From NCBI RefSeq assembly GCF_988242995.1, contig NZ_OZ547043.1: a DNA stretch of 64,000 nucleotides; one strand, written 5' to 3'. Made by a program: the position numbers and the translations under genes. The notes beneath the pieces were generated by a model. It worked only from the letters and a program-made list of their open reading frames with translations. It was not told where the DNA came from and searched no databases. Shown piece after piece: positions 11,133-24,460 of the stretch; position 1 is the first letter of the stretch; every line of letters begins with the position of its first letter.

Positions 11133-12728
11133 GTGTTAGTTTCCAGTAACGTCACCATGCAGTTCGGCAGTAAGCCGTTGTTTGAAAACATTTCCGTCAA
11201 ATTTGGCGGCGGCAACCGTTACGGCCTGATTGGCGCGAACGGTAGTGGTAAATCCACCTTTATGAAGATTCTCGGCGGCGACCTTGAGCCGACGCTGGGT
11301 AACGTTTCCCTCGATCCCAACGAGCGCATTGGTAAGCTGCGTCAGGATCAGTTTGCCTTTGAAGAGTTCACTGTGTTGGATACGGTGATCATGGGGCATA
11401 AAGAGTTGTGGGAAGTGAAGCAGGAGCGCGACCGCATCTATGCTTTGCCGGAAATGAGTGAGGAAGACGGCTATAAAGTGGCCGATCTGGAAGTGAAATA
11501 CGGCGAAATGGACGGTTACTCTGCGGAAGCTCGCGCCGGTGAACTGTTGCTTGGCGTGGGAATTCCAGTGGAACAGCACTACGGCCCGATGAGTGAAGTT
11601 GCTCCTGGCTGGAAGCTGCGTGTGCTGCTGGCGCAGGCGCTGTTTGCTGATCCGGACATTCTCCTGCTCGACGAACCGACCAACAACCTCGACATCGACA
11701 CCATTCGGTGGCTGGAACAGGTGCTGAACGAGCGTGACAGCACCATGATCATCATCTCGCACGACCGTCACTTCCTTAACATGGTTTGTACCCACATGGC
11801 GGATCTGGATTACGGCGAGCTGCGCGTTTATCCAGGTAACTACGATGAGTACATGACGGCGGCGACCCAGGCGCGTGAACGTCTGCTGGCTGATAACGCC
11901 AAGAAGAAGGCGCAGATTGCTGAGCTGCAATCTTTCGTTAGCCGCTTTAGCGCCAACGCCTCGAAATCTCGCCAGGCAACTTCGCGCGCGCGCCAGATTG
12001 ATAAAATCAAACTGGAAGAGGTGAAAGCCTCCAGCCGTCAGAACCCGTTCATCCGTTTTGAACAGGATAAGAAACTGTTCCGTAACGCGCTGGAAGTGGA
12101 AGGTCTGACCAAAGGGTTTGATAACGGTCCACTGTTTAAAAATCTCAACCTGCTGCTGGAAGTGGGTGAAAAACTGGCTGTACTGGGTACCAACGGCGTC
12201 GGTAAATCAACGCTGCTGAAAACGCTGGTGGGCGATCTGCAACCGGACAGCGGCACCGTAAAATGGTCTGAAAACGCACGCATTGGTTACTACGCCCAGG
12301 ACCACGAATATGAGTTTGAAAATGATCTGACCGTGTTCGAATGGATGAGCCAGTGGAAGCAGGAAGGCGATGACGAGCAGGCGGTACGCAGCATTCTCGG
12401 TCGTTTGCTGTTCAGCCAGGACGACATCAAAAAGCCAGCGAAAGTGCTTTCCGGTGGAGAAAAAGGGCGGATGCTGTTTGGTAAGTTAATGATGCAGAAG
12501 CCGAACATTCTGATCATGGACGAACCGACCAACCACCTGGATATGGAATCCATTGAGTCGCTGAACATGGCATTGGAACTGTATCAGGGCACGCTGATCT
12601 TTGTTTCTCACGACCGTGAGTTTGTAAGCTCCCTGGCGACCCGCATTCTGGAAATCACCCCGGAACGCGTGATCGACTTTAGCGGTAATTACGAAGATTA
12701 CCTGCGTAGTAAAGGGATCGACGGTTAA
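11133..12728 (+). CDS. ybiT: ABC-F family ATPase (two ATP-binding cassettes, no TM domain)
   Basis: Two Walker A motifs ([18 protein letters not shown]) and two ABC signatures; matches YbiT. The start is a GTG at 11133 and is not certain. Confidence 0.9.
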
Positions 12729-12865
12729 TTTCCCGCCGTCTTTCATGCGGCAGATGCATTGGCTTCACCTGTTCACCCCGGTCACTTACTTATTTAAGCT
12801 CCCGGGGTTTACAGGTTTGCTGCCTTCCTGCAGCGTGAAATACTGAGGTAAAGGATTCGATGGCT

Positions 12866-12896
12866 GGACCGGGTAAGGCGCAGTCGCCTCCCGGCC
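12866..12896. repeat. REP-like palindromic element (diverged)
   Basis: GGACCGGGTAAGGCGCAGTCGCCTCCCGGCC resembles the REP consensus (GCCGGATAAGGCG...CGCC..TCCGGC) with several mismatches. Confidence 0.35.
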
Positions 12897-12907
12897 CCGG
12901 TAATGAT

Positions 12908-15283
12908 TTAACGCATCCATTCACTCCCTTCAACACCATTGACCAGCAGCGTGCGTTTTTCTTCCACTGGTAATGACACTTTCAGTGCACTCCATGCAGG
13001 TCGATAATCCCCGCGCGCGTTGACTTTCAGGTTGATGGTCGCCCCATCGCAAACCATTTCCCATTCCACCCAAAGCGCATTACCAGTTTGGTAGCCCCAG
13101 CTTTCGCCATCGTCTTCAAACAGCAGGCCGGACGTTGTGCCCACACCTTTCAGCGGGAACAGTTTCAGTTCGCGGGTATCGTCTTGTTCTGCGCTCACAT
13201 AGGTGATGCGTTTGCTGAGCGGTAGACCAGCCCCGGCACGCACCATCAGCGGCAGTTTCTCCAGCGGTGCGTCGAGGGTGATCCACTGACCGCCACTGAA
13301 CCATTCGCCGTTGTAGAAATCGTACCAGCCAGTTTCGTTATCTGGCAGCCATACACGGCGCTGGCGCTCGCCTTGCTCTACGACGCTGGCAACCAAAATA
13401 TCGCGACCAAGCAGGAAGTCATCACACTCTTCAAAAGTCTGAACGTCGTGCTCGTGGTCAAGGAAAGTCGGACGTAGCATTGGTTCATCATCGGCGTATG
13501 CCTGCCACATCAGGGTATAAAAGTAGGGCAGCAGGCGATAGCGCAACTCAATAGCGCTGCGGATCGCCGGAGTGACGCCCGGATACATCCACGGTTCGTT
13601 TACGGTATGGTCATCGTTCCACGAGTGAATCGTAAAGCGCGGATGCATCACGCCGTTTTGTACCCAGCGTACAAACAGTTCCGGGTCCGGCTTATCACCG
13701 GAGAAACCGCCGACGTCGTGACCGAGGTTATACAGCCCGGAGAGGCTCATCCCCAGACCCATGCGGGTGTTGTAGCGCAGAGTGTCCCAGCTAGTGCGGT
13801 TATCGCCACTCCAGGTCTGCACGTAGCGCTGCATTCCCGCGCAGCCGGAGCGGGAGATCAAGTACGGACGTTTTTCCGGAGCGAAACGCTGCTGGGCTTC
13901 CATCGAGGCTCGCATCATCAGCAGTGGCATCACTGGGCGAATATGTTTGATCGCGATCGTCTGACCAAAGCCGTGACAGCGTGCTTCACCGTCCCATACT
14001 TCGAATTCGTTGTTGTCGTTCCAGGTGGAGTCGATACCCATCTCCAGAAGCTGTGTGGTCACGCCTTCCTGCCACCACTGGATGGTCTGCGGATTAGTAA
14101 AGTCGAGGTTAGAACCTTCGTCATCCCAGAAGCTGGAACGTTCTGGTTCATCTGTTTCTGAATCACGGATGAACAGTCCTCTTTCTGCCACTTCGTTATA
14201 GCGTGGGTGATCCTGCAACAGGCACGGCTTGATATTGGCGGCCAAGTGCAAACCAGCATTGTGAAATGCCTGGCTCATCACTTTCGGCTGCGGCACTTTG
14301 TCGTAATTCCAGTTGAACACATAGCGCTTGCCGTTAATTGAGGTATAACCGGAAGAGAGCTGGAACGAATCGCAGGGAATCGCATGTTCTTCACACAGGC
14401 GGATAAAGTTCATCAACTGATTTTGTGCGTCCGGCGCATCGGTGTAGTGCATAGTTGAACCGCTGTAGCCCAGGCTCCATTTCGGTCCGAACAGGGTTTT
14501 GCCGGTCAGGCGTACGAAGGCTTTGGTGATATCAAGTACGCGTTCGCCGGTAAACAGGTAGTAGTCGATATCACCCGCTTCCGCCTGCCAGCGGCGATAG
14601 GCGGTGTGGTAGTTGTCGATCTCGTTGCCCAGATCCAGCCAGCAGCTGCTGAGGTTGTCATAAAACAGGCCGAAGCTAACGTCATCGCGGCGGGTGATGG
14701 TGAATGGAATGTGTTTGTACAACGGGTCAGTACTAACGGCGTTGTAGCCCATCGCGTCGAGGTTACGCATCTCGTAACGTTTACCGTTGCGTTGCAGGTC
14801 GCCGGCTTTATCTCCGAGGCCATAAAAGCGTTCATCTTTACGACGGCTCTGATAGTGCGCCACGCCGTCGCCGTGGGCATTCAGCAGATAAGCGCTGGTC
14901 GGGCGGTCATTCACCAACGGCAGCCATTCGCCTTCGTTGTTACGATAGTGCCACTCCAGCCACAGCGGCTGGTGAACGGTGGCACGCAGTGACTCGGTGG
15001 CGATAACCACGGTGTCGTCGTGCTGGATCAATGTCCACGCGGGCAGGCTAAAGCCGCTGAGATCTTCGCGGCTGCGCCCTTCCCATGGCACATCCTGCGC
15101 CGGAGCAATGCTCCAGGTGCGATCCAGCGCCAGCTCGCCTTTGCGTTTTAACAGCACGCGGAACAGATTTTCTTCCAGCACGTACAGGCACAGGATATGC
15201 TGGCCATCGACCAGCAGTTCAACGTGGTGGGCAGACTGTTTGTGCAGGGTCCAGTTTTTCAGCGTTTTCATGTTTACATCCAT
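12908..15283 (-). CDS. Glycoside hydrolase family 31 alpha-glycosidase, cytoplasmic, substrate unknown
   Basis: 791-aa ORF with a GH31 nucleophile-region motif (GIDSTWNDNNEF, compare WIDMNE) and acid/base-region motif (VQTWSGDNRTSW). No signal peptide. Start may be the ATG at 15283 or 15271. Confidence 0.85.
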   Translation of the reverse strand: MDVNMKTLKNWTLHKQSAHHVELLVDGQHILCLYVLEENLFRVLLKRKGELALDRTWSIAPAQDVPWEGRSREDLSGFSLPAWTLIQHDDTVVIATESLRATVHQPLWLEWHYRNNEGEWLPLVNDRPTSAYLLNAHGDGVAHYQSRRKDERFYGLGDKAGDLQRNGKRYEMRNLDAMGYNAVSTDPLYKHIPFTITRRDDVSFGLFYDNLSSCWLDLGNEIDNYHTAYRRWQAEAGDIDYYLFTGERVLDITKAFVRLTGKTLFGPKWSLGYSGSTMHYTDAPDAQNQLMNFIRLCEEHAIPCDSFQLSSGYTSINGKRYVFNWNYDKVPQPKVMSQAFHNAGLHLAANIKPCLLQDHPRYNEVAERGLFIRDSETDEPERSSFWDDEGSNLDFTNPQTIQWWQEGVTTQLLEMGIDSTWNDNNEFEVWDGEARCHGFGQTIAIKHIRPVMPLLMMRASMEAQQRFAPEKRPYLISRSGCAGMQRYVQTWSGDNRTSWDTLRYNTRMGLGMSLSGLYNLGHDVGGFSGDKPDPELFVRWVQNGVMHPRFTIHSWNDDHTVNEPWMYPGVTPAIRSAIELRYRLLPYFYTLMWQAYADDEPMLRPTFLDHEHDVQTFEECDDFLLGRDILVASVVEQGERQRRVWLPDNETGWYDFYNGEWFSGGQWITLDAPLEKLPLMVRAGAGLPLSKRITYVSAEQDDTRELKLFPLKGVGTTSGLLFEDDGESWGYQTGNALWVEWEMVCDGATINLKVNARGDYRPAWSALKVSLPVEEKRTLLVNGVEGSEWMR

Positions 15284-15285
15284 TC

Positions 15286-16593
15286 TCAGGCGCGTTTTGC
15301 GCGACGTTCAGCAATAAAGGTGACCAGGAAGAAAGCACCAATCAGGTCAAAGAAGCCCATGGCGATAAACAGGGGGTTAAAGCCGATTTTGTCAGCGGTA
15401 ACCCCGATAATCAGGGAGAACAGGAAACTTGCGATCCACGCGGCAGAACCGCGCATGCCGTTAACAGTGGCCATCTGACCTTTGTCGAAGGATTCCACCA
15501 CCAGTGCGCTCAGCATGCAGGAGATGATCTGGTGACCGAAGCCGCCGATGGAAATAAGGACGATGGCGATATACGGGTTATTGGTAAAGGCCATCACCGC
15601 CAGCGAAACCATCAGGAATGCGCCACTGACCGATGATGCGACAACGGAGTTCACACGACTCAGCCCAAACAGGCGGGTGTAAAGTTTGGTCAGATAGCCG
15701 CTGGCAATACTGCCAAGATCAGCGGCGAGGAACGGCAACCAGGCGAATAATGCGATCTGCTTAAGGTCCATGCCATAGGTTTTGGACAGGTATAGCGGAA
15801 CCCAGAAACTCATCACCGCCCACGCCGGTTCTGCCATAAAGGCCGGGATAGCGATACCGTAAAAGCGTTTATTTTTGCCTACGGTTTTCAGTGCGGTCAG
15901 AAAGGGTAACTTGACAGGGGGCGCTTCGTTATCCTGGCGGATAAAGTCCAGCTCGGCTTTGCTGAGGTTAGGATGCTTATCCGGGTTGTGATAGAACGCC
16001 CACCACAGCACCACCCACAGCATCGCCAGGATGCCAGTGAACATAAATGCACCCTGCCAGCCGAATGAAGCGTGGGCAAAATAGATAATCGGTGGGGCCA
16101 GCATGGCACCGATGGAAAAACCGACGCCTGCCCAGCCTGCGGCGATCGGGCGTTCTGATTTTGGAAACCATTCACCGATGGTTTTGGCGTTTGCTGGGGT
16201 TGCCGCGGCTTCCGCACCGCCCATAAAGAAGCGCAACAGCGCCAGATGTACCCAGTTTCCCGCCCCCGCATGCATCAGACAGGCCAGCGCCCACAGTCCC
16301 GCGCAGATCATAAAGCCCAGTTTGAGGCCAATGACGTCAATCAGCCATCCACACAACGGTTGGAATAGGGTATAGGCGAGCTGGAAAGCACCTACAATCC
16401 AGGAATATTGTTCGGTGGTAATCCCCAGGCTGCTTTTCAGTTCGGGGGCGAGAATACCCAGCGAGTTACGCGTGATGTAGTTGACAGTAACACCGAGCAA
16501 AAAAAGGACCAGTATCCACCAACGCAGATTTTTGACGATATGGCGCGGTTTACTGGCAGTCATATCGTTATTGATACCCTGACTCATATGCAC
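15286..16593 (-). CDS. MFS transporter, anion:cation symporter (ACS) family-like
   Basis: 435-aa 12-TM-type ORF with an ACS-like N-terminal signature (RWWILVLFLLGVTVNYITRNSLGILAPE...). Its stop lies 2 nt upstream of the GH31 ATG, indicating an operon. Confidence 0.85.
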   Translation of the reverse strand: MHMSQGINNDMTASKPRHIVKNLRWWILVLFLLGVTVNYITRNSLGILAPELKSSLGITTEQYSWIVGAFQLAYTLFQPLCGWLIDVIGLKLGFMICAGLWALACLMHAGAGNWVHLALLRFFMGGAEAAATPANAKTIGEWFPKSERPIAAGWAGVGFSIGAMLAPPIIYFAHASFGWQGAFMFTGILAMLWVVLWWAFYHNPDKHPNLSKAELDFIRQDNEAPPVKLPFLTALKTVGKNKRFYGIAIPAFMAEPAWAVMSFWVPLYLSKTYGMDLKQIALFAWLPFLAADLGSIASGYLTKLYTRLFGLSRVNSVVASSVSGAFLMVSLAVMAFTNNPYIAIVLISIGGFGHQIISCMLSALVVESFDKGQMATVNGMRGSAAWIASFLFSLIIGVTADKIGFNPLFIAMGFFDLIGAFFLVTFIAERRAKRA

Positions 16594-16881
16594 TCCACAG
16601 AATGGTATAGGGTTTGTGCGGCAACGTCAGAATGGAGTTGTCACACCACTTTTAACTTTTTGATAAATAAAGTCTTTATTGTTCGTTTTTCCATTATTTT
16701 TGTATGGAAGTTGTTCTACCAATTCACAGTAAGAGACCCTAAAAGCGAAAGAAAGCGGGTTTTGTGCACGTTTTTCCATGAGTGACTGATATACATTACT
16801 GAAATGGATTTAATGCCAGACAGAATGGGCTTTTTTGCTCATGAAAATTCTGTCATTTCCGAATTAGAGGCAGATCACAAA

Positions 16882-17985
16882 ATGGACAAGAAGCTGAAAA
16901 TCGCCGATATCGCCGCACGTACCGGGCTATCGCCGAGTACGGTTTCGCGGGTGCTGGCTGGCAAAGCGAATACCAGTGCACGCGCTCGCGAACAGGTGCT
17001 GGCCTGCGCGCGTGAGTTGGGCGTGATGGATGGCATGGCAGCAGGTCGTATGTTGCTGAACAACCTGATTATTTTCGCGCCGCAACGCGCTTTTGACCAA
17101 CGATCTGATATCTTTTATTACCGTGTGATCCAGAGCATCAGCAAAGCGTTATCGCCGCATGAAGTGCGGCTGCGTTACTGCGCGCTGGAGGAGTTTGACA
17201 GCGATCCCGCGCTATTTCTCTCGCGGATGAATGAAGCAGATACGCAGGCGGCGATCCTGCTGGGGATTGACGATCCGCACATCCATGATCTGGCCGCCGA
17301 TCTCGCTAAGCCTTGTGTGCTGATCAACTGCCGTGATGAACGAATGCGCCTCCCGGCGATTGCGCCGGACCATCGGTTAATTGGCGCGTTCGCCGCCCGC
17401 TATCTGTTTGAAATGGGTCACCGGGAGGTGATGAATGTGATGTGCCTGCGCCGCTACACTATGGAGCAGCGGTTTGCAGGGATTAAAGAATCATGGCGTC
17501 AGCATAATCTGGCCTTTCACCATGACCGTCATTTGCTGAATATCAGCAGTTTTAGCGCTAAAGAAGCGGAAGAAAAGGTCGGAGCGTGGCTGGATGCCGC
17601 CAATGGCAAGACGTTGCCGACGGCGTTTCTGGTCGGCGGGGATTTTATGGCGGCGGGAACGGTAAATGCGCTACATCGTCGTGGTCTGCGCGTACCACAG
17701 GATGTCTCGGTGATGAGTATCGACGGCTTTAACCTTGCGGCAATCGAGGATGTTCCCCTGACGGCTGTGCATGTGCCACGCGATGAGCTAGGCAATGAAG
17801 CGGTGCAAATGTTGCAACAGCGGCTGATTCGCCCGGATGCTCCGGTGGGCTCGCTGCTGCTGCACGGACGATTGGCGGTGCGGGAGTCAGTGCGGCGGGT
17901 TCGCCCAGGAAAAGGGAACACCGCCGTGGAACGGGAAGGGCTGTACGACACTCAGCTGTCGATTCCCAACGCTCGCTTACCGTGA
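16882..17985 (+). CDS. LacI-family transcriptional regulator, divergent from the MFS-GH31 operon
   Basis: N-terminal HTH KIADIAARTGLSPSTVSRVL followed by a periplasmic-binding-protein-like sugar-binding core. Start chosen at MDKKLKIADI; upstream in-frame ATGs exist, so the start is uncertain. Confidence 0.8.
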   Translation: MDKKLKIADIAARTGLSPSTVSRVLAGKANTSARAREQVLACARELGVMDGMAAGRMLLNNLIIFAPQRAFDQRSDIFYYRVIQSISKALSPHEVRLRYCALEEFDSDPALFLSRMNEADTQAAILLGIDDPHIHDLAADLAKPCVLINCRDERMRLPAIAPDHRLIGAFAARYLFEMGHREVMNVMCLRRYTMEQRFAGIKESWRQHNLAFHHDRHLLNISSFSAKEAEEKVGAWLDAANGKTLPTAFLVGGDFMAAGTVNALHRRGLRVPQDVSVMSIDGFNLAAIEDVPLTAVHVPRDELGNEAVQMLQQRLIRPDAPVGSLLLHGRLAVRESVRRVRPGKGNTAVEREGLYDTQLSIPNARLP

Positions 17986-19217
17986 ATGTTGAGGTCGGCA
18001 AGCGTAAAGCGTCCTTCCCAGTTTGTTTCATAGTCCTCGCGCGGGAAGTCGCCCGGCGATGCGCCTTTTTCCAGTGCGGCCTTCACCTTGTGCGCGTAGG
18101 CAAGATTTTTCTCGCACATCGGTGCCGCAGGAATGTACATCACGTTGCCCCAGCCCTGTTGATTTTCAACGGGGGCAACGGAATGGATGACGTCGCAGTG
18201 CCACCAGACGGAGTCTCCGGCTTCGAGTTTTGGAATGCTGGTTAACGCCTCAATCAACAGTGGATGCCATTGCTCTGATACCGGCAATACTCTTCCGGGC
18301 GCTACGCCGCACAGTTCATCCTCCGGCACATCATCAAGCAGCGGACGTAACAGTACGTACGCCATGGCTTCAGGAATGGGCACGACGTGCAGCAGCCCCT
18401 GACCAGGCAGCATATCAGAGAGCGCTGTCCAGCCCTGGAATGTCCGAAACACGGAACATTTGGTGGTGTTGTCCACCGTGTACTCTTCAACTTCCGTACG
18501 ATGTGCCGCATGCCAGGGATCATATTGCGCCAGATTGCCATTAAAGACGTTGGCGAAAACGCGCTGATACGCTGGAAGCAGCCAGCGTTCCAGTGCCCCG
18601 GAGTCGGTATGCGCTCCAAGACCTTTGGAGGTCGTTCCGGGCGGACGGCGGCGGATACGGTCAGGGTAGATGACGCTCACATCCGGGTTAAACCATTGCT
18701 TTCCATCACTTTCAAATGTCCACAGACGATTGAGAAACGACTGCGCATTCGCCATTTCTTCACTCTGGCGAGCCTGCATTTGCGCCTGCGACCAGTAGAT
18801 GGGGTAAATCTCGGGACGTGAAGCGCTGAGCGTCCCGAAGAAATTATCGCCGGGGCCTTTGTAGACCTCGTCAAAGCGGTTGCGGTCCAGATAGTCCAGC
18901 ATCGACTGATCCCAGCCTAGCGCTTGTTCGCGGGGGAAATGGCCTTTTATCACCGCACAACCGCGACGTTTAATCTGTTCGCGCTGCTCTGCAGTAACAT
19001 GACCTGCTTTGATATCGGCATAAGACAGCACCGGCCAGATGGCATCGCCCTGTGCTTTGAGTGCGTTGATTTCAGCCACTCGCGTAGCAATGTCATCGCT
19101 TAGCTGATTAAAGATCTGCTGGACGTCGCCAAGCTGTGCCCGCAGCGCGTGCTTCATCTGACGGATAGCTGCTTTGTGATCGGCAGGCAATGTGTCGCTG
19201 GTAAAAGTAGAAGCCAT
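17952..19217 (-). CDS. ybiU: DUF1479-family protein
   Basis: Start MASTFTSDTLPADHKAAIRQ... preceded by SD GAGGTGG; matches YbiU. Its 3' end overlaps the convergent LacI-family gene by 34 bp. Confidence 0.85.
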   Translation of the reverse strand: MASTFTSDTLPADHKAAIRQMKHALRAQLGDVQQIFNQLSDDIATRVAEINALKAQGDAIWPVLSYADIKAGHVTAEQREQIKRRGCAVIKGHFPREQALGWDQSMLDYLDRNRFDEVYKGPGDNFFGTLSASRPEIYPIYWSQAQMQARQSEEMANAQSFLNRLWTFESDGKQWFNPDVSVIYPDRIRRRPPGTTSKGLGAHTDSGALERWLLPAYQRVFANVFNGNLAQYDPWHAAHRTEVEEYTVDNTTKCSVFRTFQGWTALSDMLPGQGLLHVVPIPEAMAYVLLRPLLDDVPEDELCGVAPGRVLPVSEQWHPLLIEALTSIPKLEAGDSVWWHCDVIHSVAPVENQQGWGNVMYIPAAPMCEKNLAYAHKVKAALEKGASPGDFPREDYETNWEGRFTLADLNIHGKRALGIDS

Positions 19218-19326
19218 AACCACCTCGCATTAACTTTCATTCGAAACTATAATGATTTGCATGTGACAATATAAGTTATAAATAAGTTAATGCAAGTTTA
19301 ATGATTTGATGTGATGTACAGGATGT

Positions 19327-19360
19327 AAAAAGAAGGGAAAACCGGAGCGCATGGCTCCGG
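19327..19360 (-). terminator. Rho-independent terminator downstream of ybiV
   Basis: Minus strand: ACCGGAGC-catgc-GCUCCGGU followed by UUUUCCCUUCUUUUU. Confidence 0.65.
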
Positions 19361-19368
19361 TAGAGAGG

Positions 19369-20184
19369 TCAGCTGTTAAAAGGGGATGTATTATCCAGCA
19401 CCGCCTGAATCACATTCAGCGCGCCTTCATGATTATTATCATCGGTAGCGTAACGGGCGATTTGTTTAATGTTTTCCGCAGCATTGCCCATCGCAAAGGA
19501 ATAACGCGCCATTTTCAGCATCTCCGCATCGTTACCGCTGTCGCCAATCGCTACCACATTTTGCGGCGACAGATCCCAGCGTTTCAGTAACCGCGAAATA
19601 CCATTCGCTTTATGCAGGCCAGGAATAATCAGGTCGATAAAGCCAAAACCACTGGTGACGGGTTTCATAATGCCATCCAGCGCTATGTGCAGTTTGTCGA
19701 TCACTAACGGGATTTGTTCATCCGGCAGGTTGAGCGAAAACTTGAACAGTACGTCGTCAATCTCCTGATAATCTTTTACAGGTTTCAGGCGATGGTAGTG
19801 TTTTGCCATCAGTGCGACGAATGCTTCGGGGGCATTTTCGCTGACATATGCACTTTGCAGACCGCAGGCGACAAAATTGAGTTGCTTATCTTTTAGCAAC
19901 TCGCCAATTACAATCCGCGATTCATGTCGGGTCAGTTCGCCGTGGAACAGTTGCTTGCCATGTTCGTAAACCAGTGCGCCGTTTTCCGCGACAAAAGAGA
20001 TCTCATCCTTTAGCTCAGGAAAGAATGAAATAAGCTGGTAATACTGATTACCGCTGGCGACAACGAACTCAATGCCGCGCTTTTTCAGTTCCTGATATTG
20101 CGCCATAAAACGTGGTTGGTTGTACGTTTTGGCGTCGTTAAGAAAAGTACCGTCCATGTCTGTGACGATAACTTTTACGCTCAT
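19369..20184 (-). CDS. ybiV: Sugar phosphatase, HAD superfamily (Cof-type)
   Basis: 271-aa ORF with the HAD motif VTDMDGTFL near the N-terminus; matches YbiV. A paralogue, ybjI, is also in this window. Confidence 0.9.
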
Positions 20185-20329
20185 AGGTGTGCTCCTGGCT
20201 CGAAAATGAAACCGTAACAGTGTAATAACAATGTGACGCAGAGCACAAATTATATTTCGAATGAAAGCGAGGCTGAAATTGATGATGTGAATGATTTGGC
20301 CCGGCGACGCCGCCGCCGGGCTGAGGGGA

Positions 20330-22762
20330 TTACAGCATATGTTCAGTACGGGCGATGATATCGTCCTGTGCGTCTGGAGAGAGCGCGGTGAAGAAGGCGG
20401 AATAGCCCGCGACGCGCACTACCAGATCGCGATACTGATCGGGATGTTTTTTCGCCTCCAGCAGCGTTTCGCGGGAAACGATGTTGTACTGAATATGCCA
20501 GCCTTTATGCACCTCGAAGAAGGTGCGCAGCAGGATCATCAGTTTCTGCTTGTCAGATTCGTTCTCCAGTGTTGCTGGATTCAGTTTCTGGTTGAGCAAC
20601 ACGCCGCCGAGAATCGCTGCCGTAGGCAGTTTACCCACCGAGCCAATGACCGCAGTAGGGCCAAGATGATCAGTACCGGAAGCCGGGCTTGCGCCTTCTG
20701 CCAGCGGGGTGTGGGCTTTACGCCCGTCCGGTGTTGCCATAGTCTGCGCGCCAAACGGTACGTTAGCGGAGATAGACGACGTACCCGCGTAATAGTTGCC
20801 GCCAACCGGACCACGACCGTAGCGTGGGTTATGGTACTGTTTCAGTTCGTCGATATAGGTCTGATAAGCGCGAGCCAGCAGCGTATCGACGGTATCATCG
20901 TCGTTGCCGTACTTCGGCGCACCGTTAATCAGCCGCTGACGCAGTTGCTCATGAGTCAGGCCATCGAAGTCATCCGCCAGTGCGGCAGCCAGCTGTTGCT
21001 GACCAATCGCGCCCTGTTCAAACACCAGTTTCCTCACTGCCGCCAGGCTGTTGCCAAGGTTGGCAATGCCGACCTGCAGGCCAGAAACCCAGTCATATTT
21101 CGCGCCGCCTTGCTTGATACTTTTTGCTCGCTCAATACAGTCATCCACCAGCGCCGAGCAGAGAATATCGTGCACGTTCTCCTCCAGCATGGTGTCAACG
21201 ACATATTCGATTTCGATTGATTTGCGGGTGTAGTAACGGATTTGCGTGTCCCACGCGTCCATTACTTCATCGAAATTGTTAAAGTTACCTGCCGACAACG
21301 CTTTTTCTTGTGGCAGGAACACTTTGCCGCTGGTGGCATCACGACCGCCTTCCAGCGCCGCCAGCATCACACGGGCGAAGTTGATAAAGCTCATGCCGGT
21401 ACAGCGATAGCCCCATTTGCCACCGACGGCGGTTTCGATACAACCAATCGCTGCATAGTCGTAAGCGTCCTGCGGTTCAATACCGAGTTTAATAAATTCC
21501 GGGATCACGATTTCGTCGTTGTTGAACGCCGGCATCCCGAAGCCGCAACGGATCACCTGTACGCAGGCGTCGAGGAAATCGTTGCTCATTCCTGCATGGT
21601 AACGCACGCTGAGGTTAGGCTGAGTGGAACGCAGGCGACCGCAGGATTCGAGGATCGCGTAAGAGAGGGGATTCACCGCGTCCATTGGTTGACCATCAAC
21701 CAGATTTTGCCCGCCAATAGTGACGTTCTGATACAGCGGACTTCCCGCAGAGGCTTTCGAGTGCGAGCCGGAGCGGATTTTGTTCACTTCCAGCAGTTTC
21801 AACCAGCAGCTATGCAGCATCTCGATGGCGTGTTCGCGATCCAGTGTCTGGTTCAGTTCAACGTCGCGGCGATAGTACGGGTAGAGATACTGGTCCATAC
21901 GACCAAACGATACCGAGTGACCGTTAGATTCGATCTGCAATATCAACTGGATGAAGTAACACAGTTGCAGCGCCTGCCAGAAAGTCTGCGGCGGCTGGTG
22001 GGCGATAAGATCGCAGTTTTCTGCCATCGCCAGCAGTTCATCGCGACGGCTTTCGCGGGTTTCGGTCGCGGCCATTTCACGCGCCAGGGCAGCGAAACGT
22101 TCAATGTGTTCACTGACTGCTACCAGCACGATATCAATCGCTTTCAGGAATTGCTCACCGTGTAAATCTTCCAGCACCGTCAGGTTGATGCGCGAGCGAC
22201 GTTCCGCTACTTTCTCGCGCAGACCATCAAGCCCTTTTTCCAGCAGCAGCGGGAAATTGACCGCCAGGTGCGCATCGCCGGAGGTCATATTGCCTTCCGC
22301 TTTAATGATGCCGGTCGCCAGCAGACCTTTTTGCTCATCGGTAAACATGCCGTAGCAGCGATCCTGTACGGTCTGACCGCGCCACCAAGGGCACACTTCA
22401 TGCAGAACACGTTTGTTCTCTTCGCTCACCGCAAAACCAGCACCGGGACGATCTGCCAGATCATCAATCTCTTTTTCGATCCACGAGACGGTATATTCCG
22501 GGAAGATCGGCGCGGCGCGAACTTCGCTTGCCTGGTTGCCAATGATCAACTCATCGTGCTTGATCCAGATAGTGCGATTCGCCAGGTGATGCGCCAGCGC
22601 CAGCGCGCGACGTACCGGGATCGGCTTATCGAGATGTTGTTGATACATCTCAGTATAGTGCTGCGCGCGCTCGGTACAGACCGGCGGTTTCACAATATGC
22701 ACCAGCGCATTTTTGTGCGCTTTAATGCGGTCGCTGAGCGTGTCCAGTTTCAGTGTGGTCAT
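20330..22762 (-). CDS. ybiW: Glycyl radical enzyme (pyruvate formate-lyase-like), substrate unknown
   Basis: 810-aa ORF with the C-terminal glycyl-radical motif RVAGYSAFF; matches YbiW (PflF). Confidence 0.95.
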
Positions 22763-22767
22763 GGTTG

Positions 22768-23667
22768 TTATCCTCGTAAGGTCGCGGTTAACCCTTTCTG
22801 GCAGGCATACTGCTGGGCAAAGTCGAGCAGTTCTGGCGCATCAAGCGGTTTTTCCGGGGCGTCATAGGGCAGATTAAGTAAGTGATATTTGTTGATGCCC
22901 AGCGTGTGGTAGGGCAGGAAATGAATTTCGCCAACGTGCAGCTCGTCGGCGGCAAAATCGGTAATGGCTTTTACAGAGGTTTCGTCGGCATTAAAGCCCT
23001 GAATCAGCGGCACGCGGATAATGATTTTTTTGCCCGCTGCGGCGAGTTTTTTCAGGTTATCCAGCACTCTGGCGGCGTTACCGTCGGTCCACTGTTTAAA
23101 CGGCGCGTCGGCAACGTGTTTTAAATCGGCAAGAAACAGATCGATATAGGGCAGAGAAGGGGCGATATATTTCCACGGCACATGCAGACAGGTTTCTACC
23201 GCAGTATGAATACCTGCCTCGTGGCTGGCTTGCAGTAGCGCCATCGCCATTTCCGGCTGCATAAACGGTTCACCGCCAGAAAGCGTTAAGCCGCCGCCAC
23301 TGCGATCGTAAAACGGTTTATCGCGCAGAACGGTCGCCATGATCTCCTCAACGCTTTTCACTTCACCACACACGGTTAACGCCTGTGTCGGGCAGCAGTC
23401 GGTTAGCGCCGTCAGATGCTCCGGGGTTAACTTTTCCCGATGAATAAGCAAACCATTCAACGCGCGCTCAATCACGTCCGGCGCGGCCTTAGCGCACAGC
23501 TCGCAGCCTTCCAGACAGAGTCGTGGGTCATACAGCAGATCCTGCGTGCGGGCGCGGCTTTCCGGGTTCTGACACCAGCGGCAGCCCAGCGAACAGCCTT
23601 TAAGAAATACGACCGTGCGGATACCGGGGCCATCATGGGTCGAGTAGCGCTGAATATTGAAAATCAT
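22768..23667 (-). CDS. ybiY: Glycyl-radical-enzyme activating enzyme (radical SAM)
   Basis: CxxxCxxC radical-SAM motif (CSLGCRWC) plus a second Cys-rich cluster; start taken at [18 protein letters not shown] (299 aa). The track ORF extends 9 codons upstream. Confidence 0.9.
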
Positions 23668-23720
23668 AGTTGCCTCTCTGTTTCGTTCAAACATTAAAAT
23701 ACTTTCGAATGAAAGTTAGA

Positions 23721-23734
23721 TTGATGTACGTCAA
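23721..23734. promoter_or_regulatory. FNR/CRP-family half-site dyad TTGAT-GTAC-GTCAA in the divergent ybiY/fsaA region
   Basis: 9 of 10 matches to the FNR consensus TTGAT-N4-ATCAA, centred about 60 bp upstream of the ybiY ATG and about 70 bp upstream of the fsaA ATG. Anaerobic control would fit a glycyl radical enzyme operon. Confidence 0.45.
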
Positions 23735-23797
23735 CTGTTCAGAGAGTTTTCCCGTGATAGTCTACATTCAGACAAAAAGTACATTTTGAGGATGGTT

Positions 23798-24460
23798 ATG
23801 GAACTGTATCTGGATACTTCAGACGTTGTTGCGGTGAAGGTGCTGTCACGTATTTTTCCGCTGGCGGGTGTGACCACTAACCCAAGCATTATCGCCTCGG
23901 GTAAAAAACCGCTGGAGGTTGTGCTTCCGCAACTTCACGAGGCGATGGGCGGTCAGGGGCGTCTGTTTGCCCAGGTAATGGCTACCACTGCTGAAGGGAT
24001 GGTGAATGACGCACGTAAATTGCGTTCTATTATTGCGGATATCGTGGTGAAAGTTCCTGTGACCGCTGAGGGGCTGGCAGCTATTAAGATGTTAAAAGCG
24101 GAAGGGATTCCGACGCTGGGAACCGCGGTATATGGCGCGGCACAAGGGCTGCTGTCGGCGCTGGCAGGTGCGGAATATGTTGCGCCTTACGTCAACCGTA
24201 TTGATGCTCAGGGCGGTTGCGGTATTCAGACTGTGACCGACTTACACCAGTTATTGAAAATGCATGCGCCGCAGGCGAAAGTGCTGGCAGCGAGTTTCAA
24301 AACCCCGCGTCAGGCTCTGGACTGCTTACTGGCAGGATGTGAATCAATTACTCTGCCGCTGGATGTGGCACAACAGATGATTAGCTATCCGGCGGTTGAT
24401 GCCGCAGTGGCGAAGTTTGAGCAGGACTGGCAGGGAGCGTTTGGCAGAACGTCGATTTAA
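23798..24460 (+). CDS. fsaA: Fructose-6-phosphate aldolase 1
   Basis: [14 protein letters not shown]... 220 aa, transaldolase-like fold family; matches FsaA. Confidence 0.9.

Follow-up and report, generated by a model that had tools for sequence, protein, structure and literature searches.

A repeated palindrome in three promoter regions

Why should the same 13 nucleotides, TTTCGAATGAAAG, be present in three successive intergenic regions of one bacterial gene cluster? The cluster, ybiU-ybiV-ybiW-ybiY/fsaA, is located within a 64,000-nt stretch of contig NZ_OZ547043.1 (assembly GCF_988242995.1; hereafter, the window), and this region of the window has 97.7% identity to its counterpart in Escherichia coli K-12. 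As documented below, the sequence is very probably the core of an operator for YciT, a DeoR-family repressor, with one operator in each promoter region of the cluster. A preliminary description of the window had noted the repeat, and suggested either a transcription-factor site shared by a regulon or a small interspersed repeat. Pattern searches confirmed three exact copies, at 19234-19246 (minus strand), 20255-20267 (plus strand) and 23703-23715 (plus strand), all in non-coding DNA, upstream of ybiU, within the ybiW-ybiV spacer and within the divergent ybiY/fsaA region, respectively. As initially noted, there are no others in the window, and allowing up to two mismatches adds no further copy in the 64 kb. 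The recurrence is not attributable to chance, as none of 100 dinucleotide-preserving shuffles of the window contained any match to the 13-mer.

The repeated unit is longer than 13 nt. It has the form CTTTC-N4-GAAAG, and extends to a 14 to 16 bp pseudo-palindrome, (A)CTTTC-N4-GAAAG(T). The ybiY/fsaA copy is a 6-4-6 inverted repeat, ACTTTC-GAAT-GAAAGT, and is identical to the ybiU copy at 19 of 20 bases. The three operators, designated here O-U, O-V and O-Y/F, are located as follows.

19233-19248, minus strand: operator O-U, AGTTTCGAATGAAAGT on the ybiU coding strand (13-mer at 19234-19246), between the predicted transcription start and the Shine-Dalgarno sequence, at approximately +16 to +27.
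20254-20267, no strand assigned: operator O-V, CTTTCATTCGAAAT on the ybiV strand (13-mer at 20255-20267), abutting TATAAT (20254-20249).
23701-23716, no strand assigned: operator O-Y/F, ACTTTCGAATGAAAGT (13-mer at 23703-23715), at -29 to -16 of the predicted ybiY promoter.

The operators are separated by 1,021 and 3,448 bp along the cluster. The copies are positioned 16 nt 5′ of the ybiU ATG, 70 nt 5′ of the ybiV ATG, and 35 and 82 nt 5′ of the ybiY and fsaA ATGs, respectively. The preliminary description had given the first distance as 17 nt, which the annotated ATG at 19217 corrects, and had the motif abutting the ybiU Shine-Dalgarno sequence, whereas this sequence (GAGG) is 7 nt past the motif. 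The similarities first listed for the flanking DNA are also reduced. In the supposedly shared ATTATAkTTTCG, the ybiV copy is one base out of register, and the TATAGT and TATAAT flanks present in E. coli are not conserved in other genera. The fragment TTGATGT...GTAC has meaning at the ybiY/fsaA copy alone, as part of an FNR-type palindrome that is conserved. A position weight matrix (PWM) built from the orthologous sites described below gives the window copies 20 to 24 bits, whereas the best matches in twenty shuffled 64-kb sequences scored from 6.7 to 17 bits.

Conservation was evaluated in 80 Enterobacterales loci, one per species, anchored on YbiW orthologues and sampled from Escherichia, Citrobacter, Enterobacter, Klebsiella, Raoultella, Kosakonia, Kluyvera, Leclercia, Lelliottia, Buttiauxella, Serratia, Rouxiella, Brenneria, Mangrovibacter and Yersinia. 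From these, 80 ybiY, 59 ybiV and 57 ybiU upstream regions could be retrieved, and TTTC-N4-GAAA is present at the orthologous place in 72, 57 and 55 of them, respectively. The motif is kept in the related intergenic regions, a comparison already proposed in the preliminary description, in ~70 species. In all three intergenic alignments, the column-wise information content is maximal on the motif, reaching near-maximal values there, and the flanks drift. PWM matches of at least 13 bits in ~1.1 Mb of these related loci occur almost exclusively at the three promoter positions.

Three identical non-coding copies within 4.5 kb, in both orientations, would be in keeping with a small interspersed repeat or the remnant of a mobile element in intergenic DNA. 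But the copies occupy orthologous positions that are fixed across genera, with base-exact spacing to promoter elements, the repeat structure in the flanking DNA ends within 16 to 20 bp, and the absence of further copies from the window, and very nearly from the related loci, is not that of a dispersing sequence. This origin, offered as an alternative in the preliminary description, is rejected and we consider its probability to be negligible. A third possibility, a cis-acting element within the RNA leaders, either a binding site for a protein or small RNA or a structure, takes its support from the ybiU copy, which is within the predicted 5′ leader near the Shine-Dalgarno sequence. The ybiY copy is, however, upstream of the predicted transcription start. 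Its orientation is fixed, with one exception, with CTTTCATTCGAAAG on the coding strand, and the ybiU copy always has the same orientation, with the opposite sense relative to its gene. The ybiV copy changes strand sense between species, its centre being ATTC, GAAT or ATAT between constant arms, and an Rfam search of the region returned no family match even at E≤1. An RNA element is thus extremely improbable. Since the ybiV centre flips while the arms remain fixed, the conserved feature bears the hallmark of a two-fold symmetric protein site, ideally TTTCAT|ATGAAA, rather than that of an RNA element or mobile repeat.

YciT binding and the evidence that does not fit

The protein that would contact this site is very likely YciT. 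The suggestion that a shared transcription-factor site unites the cluster as one regulon is borne out by published YciT data, in which the cluster genes are the most derepressed in a yciT deletion, and by the conservation of the motif. Chromatin immunoprecipitation with exonuclease digestion (ChIP-exo) placed YciT peaks in the ybiUVWY-fsaA region (Gao et al. 2021, NAR, PMC8464067). In RNA-seq of the yciT deletion strain, the five cluster genes are the top upregulated differentially expressed genes, with log2 fold changes of +7.7 (ybiY), +7.0 (ybiU), +3.5 (ybiW), +2.2 (ybiV) and +1.8 (fsaA) (PMC8464067). YciT was also enriched on a ybiY promoter (ybiYp) bait in DNA chromatography coupled to mass spectrometry, and its site in ybiYp overlaps the RNA polymerase footprint, with the footprint of an unidentified activator immediately upstream (Reg-Seq preprint, 10.1101/2025.05.13.653802). 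The preliminary description knew of no earlier account of the motif, but a 2021 paper presents the regulator, its binding to the region and a logo of its motif (PMC8464067), and a site at ybiYp was localised in 2025 (bioRxiv 10.1101/2025.05.13.653802).

For comparison with other YciT targets, the ChIP-exo peak coordinates (Gao 2021 Dataset S4) were converted from U00096.2 to NC_000913.3 by adding 778 below 1.3 Mb and 1977 above, offsets that the dmsA and ychE-oppA peaks, together with five peaks beyond 1.3 Mb, confirm. Nine other YciT peak loci, with 1.5 to 10 kb taken per locus and peaks of 25 to 50 bp, were then scanned with the PWM. In seven (pdeR, sixA, rdcA, yjiT, yjjI/deoC, ychE-oppA and dmsA), the top match is inside the peak, as exemplified by ATTTTCATTTGAAATT and ACTTTCGAGTGAAAAT. 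The yfcV peak contains a weak variant of the motif, and the PWM scan found no motif at the ompX peak. With seven peaks centred on it, TTTC-N4-GAAA is the sequence that YciT occupies in vivo, and the three window copies are by far the strongest PWM matches in all the sequence scanned. The yjjI/deoC peak, between these two genes in the DNA that controls the deo operon, is positioned on GCATTCATTTGAAAGT (locus L086, NC_000913.3 4,617,155-4,617,170). The yjjI gene, annotated solely as encoding a DUF3029 domain-containing protein, is presumably another glycyl-radical-enzyme-like gene. Neither yjjI nor deoC is among the reported yciT-deletion differentially expressed genes that were examined.

YciT has the domains expected of the family, Pfam HTH_DeoR (E = 1.4e-15) and DeoRC (E = 7.7e-47), and scores 488 bits on the NCBIfam YciT model. 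In E. coli, yciT is encoded elsewhere on the chromosome, away from the cluster. No strong autoregulatory site was found next to it, the nearby match at 1,346,878 being upstream of pdeR. When co-occurrence was scored as linkage within the 80 retrieved loci, a yciT orthologue was found to adjoin ybiYW in ten (L056, L059, L066, L068, L072, L073, L075, L076, L077 and L079), and in seven of those species the three genes form an operon in the order ybiY-ybiW-yciT. The cluster-linked Buttiauxella orthologue scores 497 bits on the YciT model, for which the cut-off is 450. In the ten linked loci, the ybiY operator is exact in three and a close variant in five more, and in Mangrovibacter a motif copy precedes a ybiU-yciT pair. 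In Rouxiella aceris (L066), a near-perfect palindromic site, TATTTCATATGAAAGT, is present at 13332-13347, ~85 nt upstream of a gene for a sugar-transporter-like protein of the major facilitator superfamily (MFS; 11996-13249, minus strand). This site adjoins a gene fragment for a phosphotransferase system EIIBC component, ~5 kb from ybiW, and the MFS transporter gene is a candidate additional regulon member or uptake gene.

Several observations weigh against YciT binding at these exact positions. The two ChIP-exo peaks in the region convert to 859,233-859,266 and 863,651-863,678 (NC_000913.3), equivalent to window positions ~19389-19422 and 23807-23834, whereas the operators correspond to 859,078-859,090, 860,099-860,111 and 863,547-863,559. 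The peaks are therefore displaced by 156 bp (signal-to-noise ratio 24) to the right of O-U and by 106 bp (signal-to-noise ratio 45) to the right of O-Y/F. There is no motif-like sequence, and no secondary motif, under the displaced peak positions, and no peak is tabulated at O-V despite its 20 to 22 bits. A coordinate-conversion artefact was considered and rejected as no single alternative offset fits both peaks. Because peak and motif coincide exactly at seven other loci, we suspect a peak-calling problem at the strongest sites. The Reg-Seq authors themselves remark that the ChIP-exo site is ~100 bp from their ybiYp site (10.1101/2025.05.13.653802). In Reg-Seq, the positions relative to the predicted start are near -5 for YciT and near -20 for an "unknown activator", a layout that matches the one presented here only after the start is shifted by ~17 to 20 nt, and the transcription starts used here are predictions from consensus and conservation. 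Reports of a purified-YciT footprint or an electrophoretic mobility shift assay on the 13-mer were not found in the searchable literature.

The peak displacements, together with the fact that AgaR is the next-best NCBIfam match to YciT and that AgaR operators contain CTTTC, would accommodate a different explanation, namely that the motif binds another or an additional protein, either a DeoR-family paralogue such as AgaR or some other factor, with YciT acting indirectly or from neighbouring sequence. Against this, further YciT peaks centre exactly on the same motif, ybiYp DNA pulled down YciT itself, loss of yciT causes a derepression that exceeds 100-fold and is confined to the cluster genes, and other genera show synteny between yciT and the cluster that bears the operators. 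We regard another binder as improbable and retain YciT as the regulator. Sites for Cra, NagC/Mlc and LacI-family proteins were ruled out on half-site sequence and spacing. The LacI-family regulator encoded nearby in the window was also rejected as the binder, as its gene is missing from K-12, which retains the motif.

Operator placement within the cluster promoters

The four ybi genes are all encoded on the minus strand, and fsaA is divergent.

17952-19217, minus strand: ybiU, DUF1479 protein.
19341-19361, minus strand: intrinsic terminator 3′ of ybiV.
19369-20184, minus strand: ybiV, HAD sugar phosphatase.
20330-22762, minus strand: ybiW, glycyl radical enzyme, the reported cleaver of 1,5-anhydroglucitol-6-phosphate.
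22768-23667, minus strand: ybiY (pflE), activase of the glycyl radical enzyme.
23798-24460, plus strand: fsaA.

Because an intrinsic terminator follows ybiV, we regard ybiU, ybiV and ybiYW as separate transcription units, each with its own copy of the motif. A GC-rich hairpin, cccggcgacgccgccgccggg, is also present at 20302-20323, right past the ybiW stop codon, but is not followed by a T-run. Its position is occupied by variable, or by repetitive extragenic palindrome-like, sequences in other species.

Upstream of ybiY, the operator is positioned between a conserved palindrome and a -10 hexamer.

23693-23698, minus strand: ybiY(W) -10 hexamer TTTAAT, with a predicted start near 23686.
23721-23734, no strand assigned: FNR-type palindrome TTGATgtacGTCAA, centred at approximately -41.5 of ybiYp and -42.5 of the predicted fsaA promoter.
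23755-23763, plus strand: candidate extended -10 of fsaA, TGaTAGTCT, with the conserved TGnTA spacing.

The order on the ybiY coding strand is TTGACgtacATCAA, 5 nt, CTTTCATTCGAAAG, 3 nt, TTTAAT, 25 to 29 nt, ATG. The spacings between the FNR-type site, the operator and TTTAAT are identical in 70 of the 80 loci. In these 70, TTGA-N6-TCAA is 5 nt from the operator 14-mer, the -10 is 3 nt past it (and is TTTAAT in 59), and TTGAY-N4-RTCAA is positioned 29 nt, centre to hexamer, upstream of the -10. The FNR consensus is TTGAT-N4-ATCAA, and activation from a class II site occurs at -41.5. With TTTAAT taken as the -10, the palindrome is at -41.5, the standard class II FNR position, and the operator extends from -29 to -16. 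These features predict that ybiYp is an FNR-dependent class II promoter; papers linking FNR with ybiY, or reporting FNR dependence of ybiYp, were not found in the searchable literature. On the fsaA side, 43 of 62 loci have TGnTA exactly 20 nt past the FNR-type site, and this fixed spacing suggests that one palindrome serves both divergent promoters. The operator is upstream of the FNR-type site relative to fsaA, an arrangement compatible with the weak, 3.4-fold effect of the yciT deletion on this gene.

This geometry agrees with deletion and point-mutation data for the orthologous "tumour-specific" hypoxia promoter of pflE in Salmonella Typhimurium. That promoter is induced 150-fold by hypoxia, and was no longer expressed once TTTAAT had been changed to TGTCAT (Leschner et al. 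2012, PMC3326293). A 50-bp fragment beginning at the motif was silent, and a 100-bp fragment that added the TTGAC-N4-ATCAA region was fully active (PMC3326293). The active fragment has the same layout, TTGACgcacATCAA, 5 nt, CTTTCATTCGAAAG, 3 nt, TTTAAT. The specificity was ascribed to a 21-bp "tusp" motif beginning at TTTAAT, with no mention of the 13-mer, YciT or FNR (PMC3326293). The loss of function caused by the TTTAAT mutation is most simply read as a -10 knockout. In E. coli, the ybiY promoter was active only anaerobically (10.1101/2025.05.13.653802). The FNR-type site probably accounts both for the "unknown activator" of Reg-Seq and for the hypoxia behaviour in Salmonella.

At ybiU, the operator is located downstream of the predicted start.

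19268-19295, minus strand: predicted ybiU promoter, TTGCAT-16 nt-TATATT, with the -35 at 19295-19290 and the -10 at 19273-19268.

TTGCAT-N16-TAnAnT is retained in 49 of the 57 ybiU loci, with the operator 21 nt after the -10, and the start is predicted near 19261. O-U occupies a promoter-proximal roadblock position, consistent with the ~130-fold derepression of ybiU. Upstream of ybiU, at ~19262-19310 on the minus strand, the block TTTTAAACTTGCATTAACTTatTTTTAACTTA hardly varies among genera. Three AACTT units within it, 11 bp apart, overlap the predicted -35 (TTGCAT) and spacer, and the block could be an UP-like element or a site for another factor.

The ybiV operator abuts a -10-like sequence, a perfect TATAAT in this strain, and adjoins a second palindrome.

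20232-20247, no strand assigned: putative CRP-like palindrome TGTGAcgcagaGCACA, adjoining O-V.

In 55 of 59 loci, TGTG-N8-CAC is separated from the ybiV operator by 6 to 7 nt. Two alternative -10/-35 pairs fit the conserved blocks of the ybiV promoter, and the position of the CRP-like site relative to either candidate is not a classical activating one. The modest 4.6-fold effect of the yciT deletion on ybiV fits a less direct overlap of operator and promoter.

The ybiYW pair is also found without these elements. In the Yersinia loci (L080-L082), ybiYW has neither a YciT-type operator nor an FNR-type site, which implies regulatory rewiring of the same enzyme pair. In Yersinia, ybiYW adjoins sgrR (PMC2760817).

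A possible inducer and anoxia gate, and its context

YbiW, described in the preliminary note as a glycyl radical enzyme with no known substrate, has since been reported to act on 1,5-anhydroglucitol-6-phosphate (PMC12441222). According to the summary available there, the reaction yields 1-deoxyfructose-6-phosphate (Ma et al., JACS 2024, summarised in PMC12441222). In the window, a 5.2-kb accessory segment (12722-17958) that is not present in K-12 separates ybiT from ybiU. Its products are a 791-aa GH31 glycoside hydrolase, a 435-aa MFS transporter and a 393-aa LacI-family regulator, and 575 of 5,426 complete E. coli genomes carry the segment at ≥80% coverage. Its location beside the 1,5-anhydroglucitol cluster may be functional or coincidental; among the members of GH31 are alpha-glucan lyases, which produce 1,5-anhydrofructose.

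A model for the control of the cluster can be proposed. Without inducer, YciT would keep the four transcription units off. At ybiYp, YciT would fill the spacer between the FNR-type site and the -10, and with the operator in this spacer, occupancy by YciT should block access of RNA polymerase even in the presence of active FNR. At ybiU, YciT would act from just downstream of the predicted start (~+16 to +27), and at ybiV, from a position next to the -10-like sequence and the CRP-like site. DeoR-family sensors typically respond to sugar phosphates, and the inducer would be a sugar phosphate of the 1,5-anhydroglucitol pathway. Given this habit of the family and the reported YbiW reaction, we infer it to be 1,5-anhydroglucitol-6-phosphate or 1-deoxyfructose-6-phosphate. 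Expression of ybiYW, and probably of fsaA, would also need anoxia, signalled through FNR, and the operator/FNR layout at ybiYp points to a gate on the 1,5-anhydroglucitol-6-phosphate pathway that would open when anoxia and inducer coincide.

Mechanistically, this system most resembles that of DeoR and the deo operators. DeoR has three operators in E. coli (OE, O1 and O2), recognises TGTTAGAA-TTCTAACA and has a known sugar-phosphate inducer. Both systems have a DeoR-family repressor and three short palindromic operators over one catabolic cluster, and a sugar-phosphate inducer, established for DeoR, would by analogy be expected for YciT. They differ in operator sequence, and here the spacings are 1.0 and 3.4 kb and each operator has its own promoter. 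By the same analogy, a YciT oligomer might loop the three operators, and together with a directional, asymmetric ATTC centre and a shared FNR dimer this would constitute an unusually compact gate on the radical glycolysis of 1,5-anhydroglucitol, opened by inducer and anoxia; the orientation of ATTC, fixed at ybiY and ybiU and free at ybiV, would then encode a directional or promoter-specific feature. We consider this combination doubtful. As the operator spacing varies by a few bp among species, an argument for looping from helical phasing is impossible.

The position of O-U, just downstream of a predicted start, is comparable to that of lac O1. When compared with the operators of other DeoR-family members (AgaR, GlpR, SrlR and UlaR), AgaR is the nearest characterised paralogue of YciT by profile score; it uses T-rich CTTTC-type half-sites, within longer, differently arranged arrays.

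The regulator, the targets, the direction of repression and the motif logo were already in print, and one of the three sites had been localised experimentally. The K-12 YciT regulon (PMC8464067; 10.1101/2025.05.13.653802) has the same regulator, the same targets (ybiU, ybiV, ybiW, ybiY and fsaA) and the same repressor logic, and the TTTC-N4-GAAA palindrome under its other ChIP-exo peaks is the one described here. The published peaks are, however, two, both offset and none in the ybiW-ybiV spacer, in comparison with the three operators resolved here to the base pair, and where the present model proposes a sugar-phosphate inducer, the earlier papers considered an osmotic role or simple aerobic repression. 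In a literature search, the literal 13-mer was found solely inside oligonucleotides of the Salmonella pflE promoter paper. What is added here are the base-pair positions of the three operators, including the unlisted ybiV site, their pseudo-palindromic form and placement relative to core promoter elements, the FNR-type site, the CRP-like site at ybiV, the deep conservation and the synteny of yciT in other genera. This is a refinement of published knowledge rather than a novel class of element.

The cluster corresponds to the recently described oxygen-sensitive use of 1,5-anhydroglucitol, a clinically tracked human metabolite, by gut Enterobacteriaceae. With exact operators and their FNR- and CRP-type partner sites, the loose ChIP-exo mapping gives way to a promoter model that can be tested, one that predicts the signals that must coincide for expression and provides candidate inducer metabolites for YciT. 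The same model would explain how the Salmonella pflE promoter, used in designs for bacterial therapy, functions as a tight hypoxia- and tumour-specific switch.

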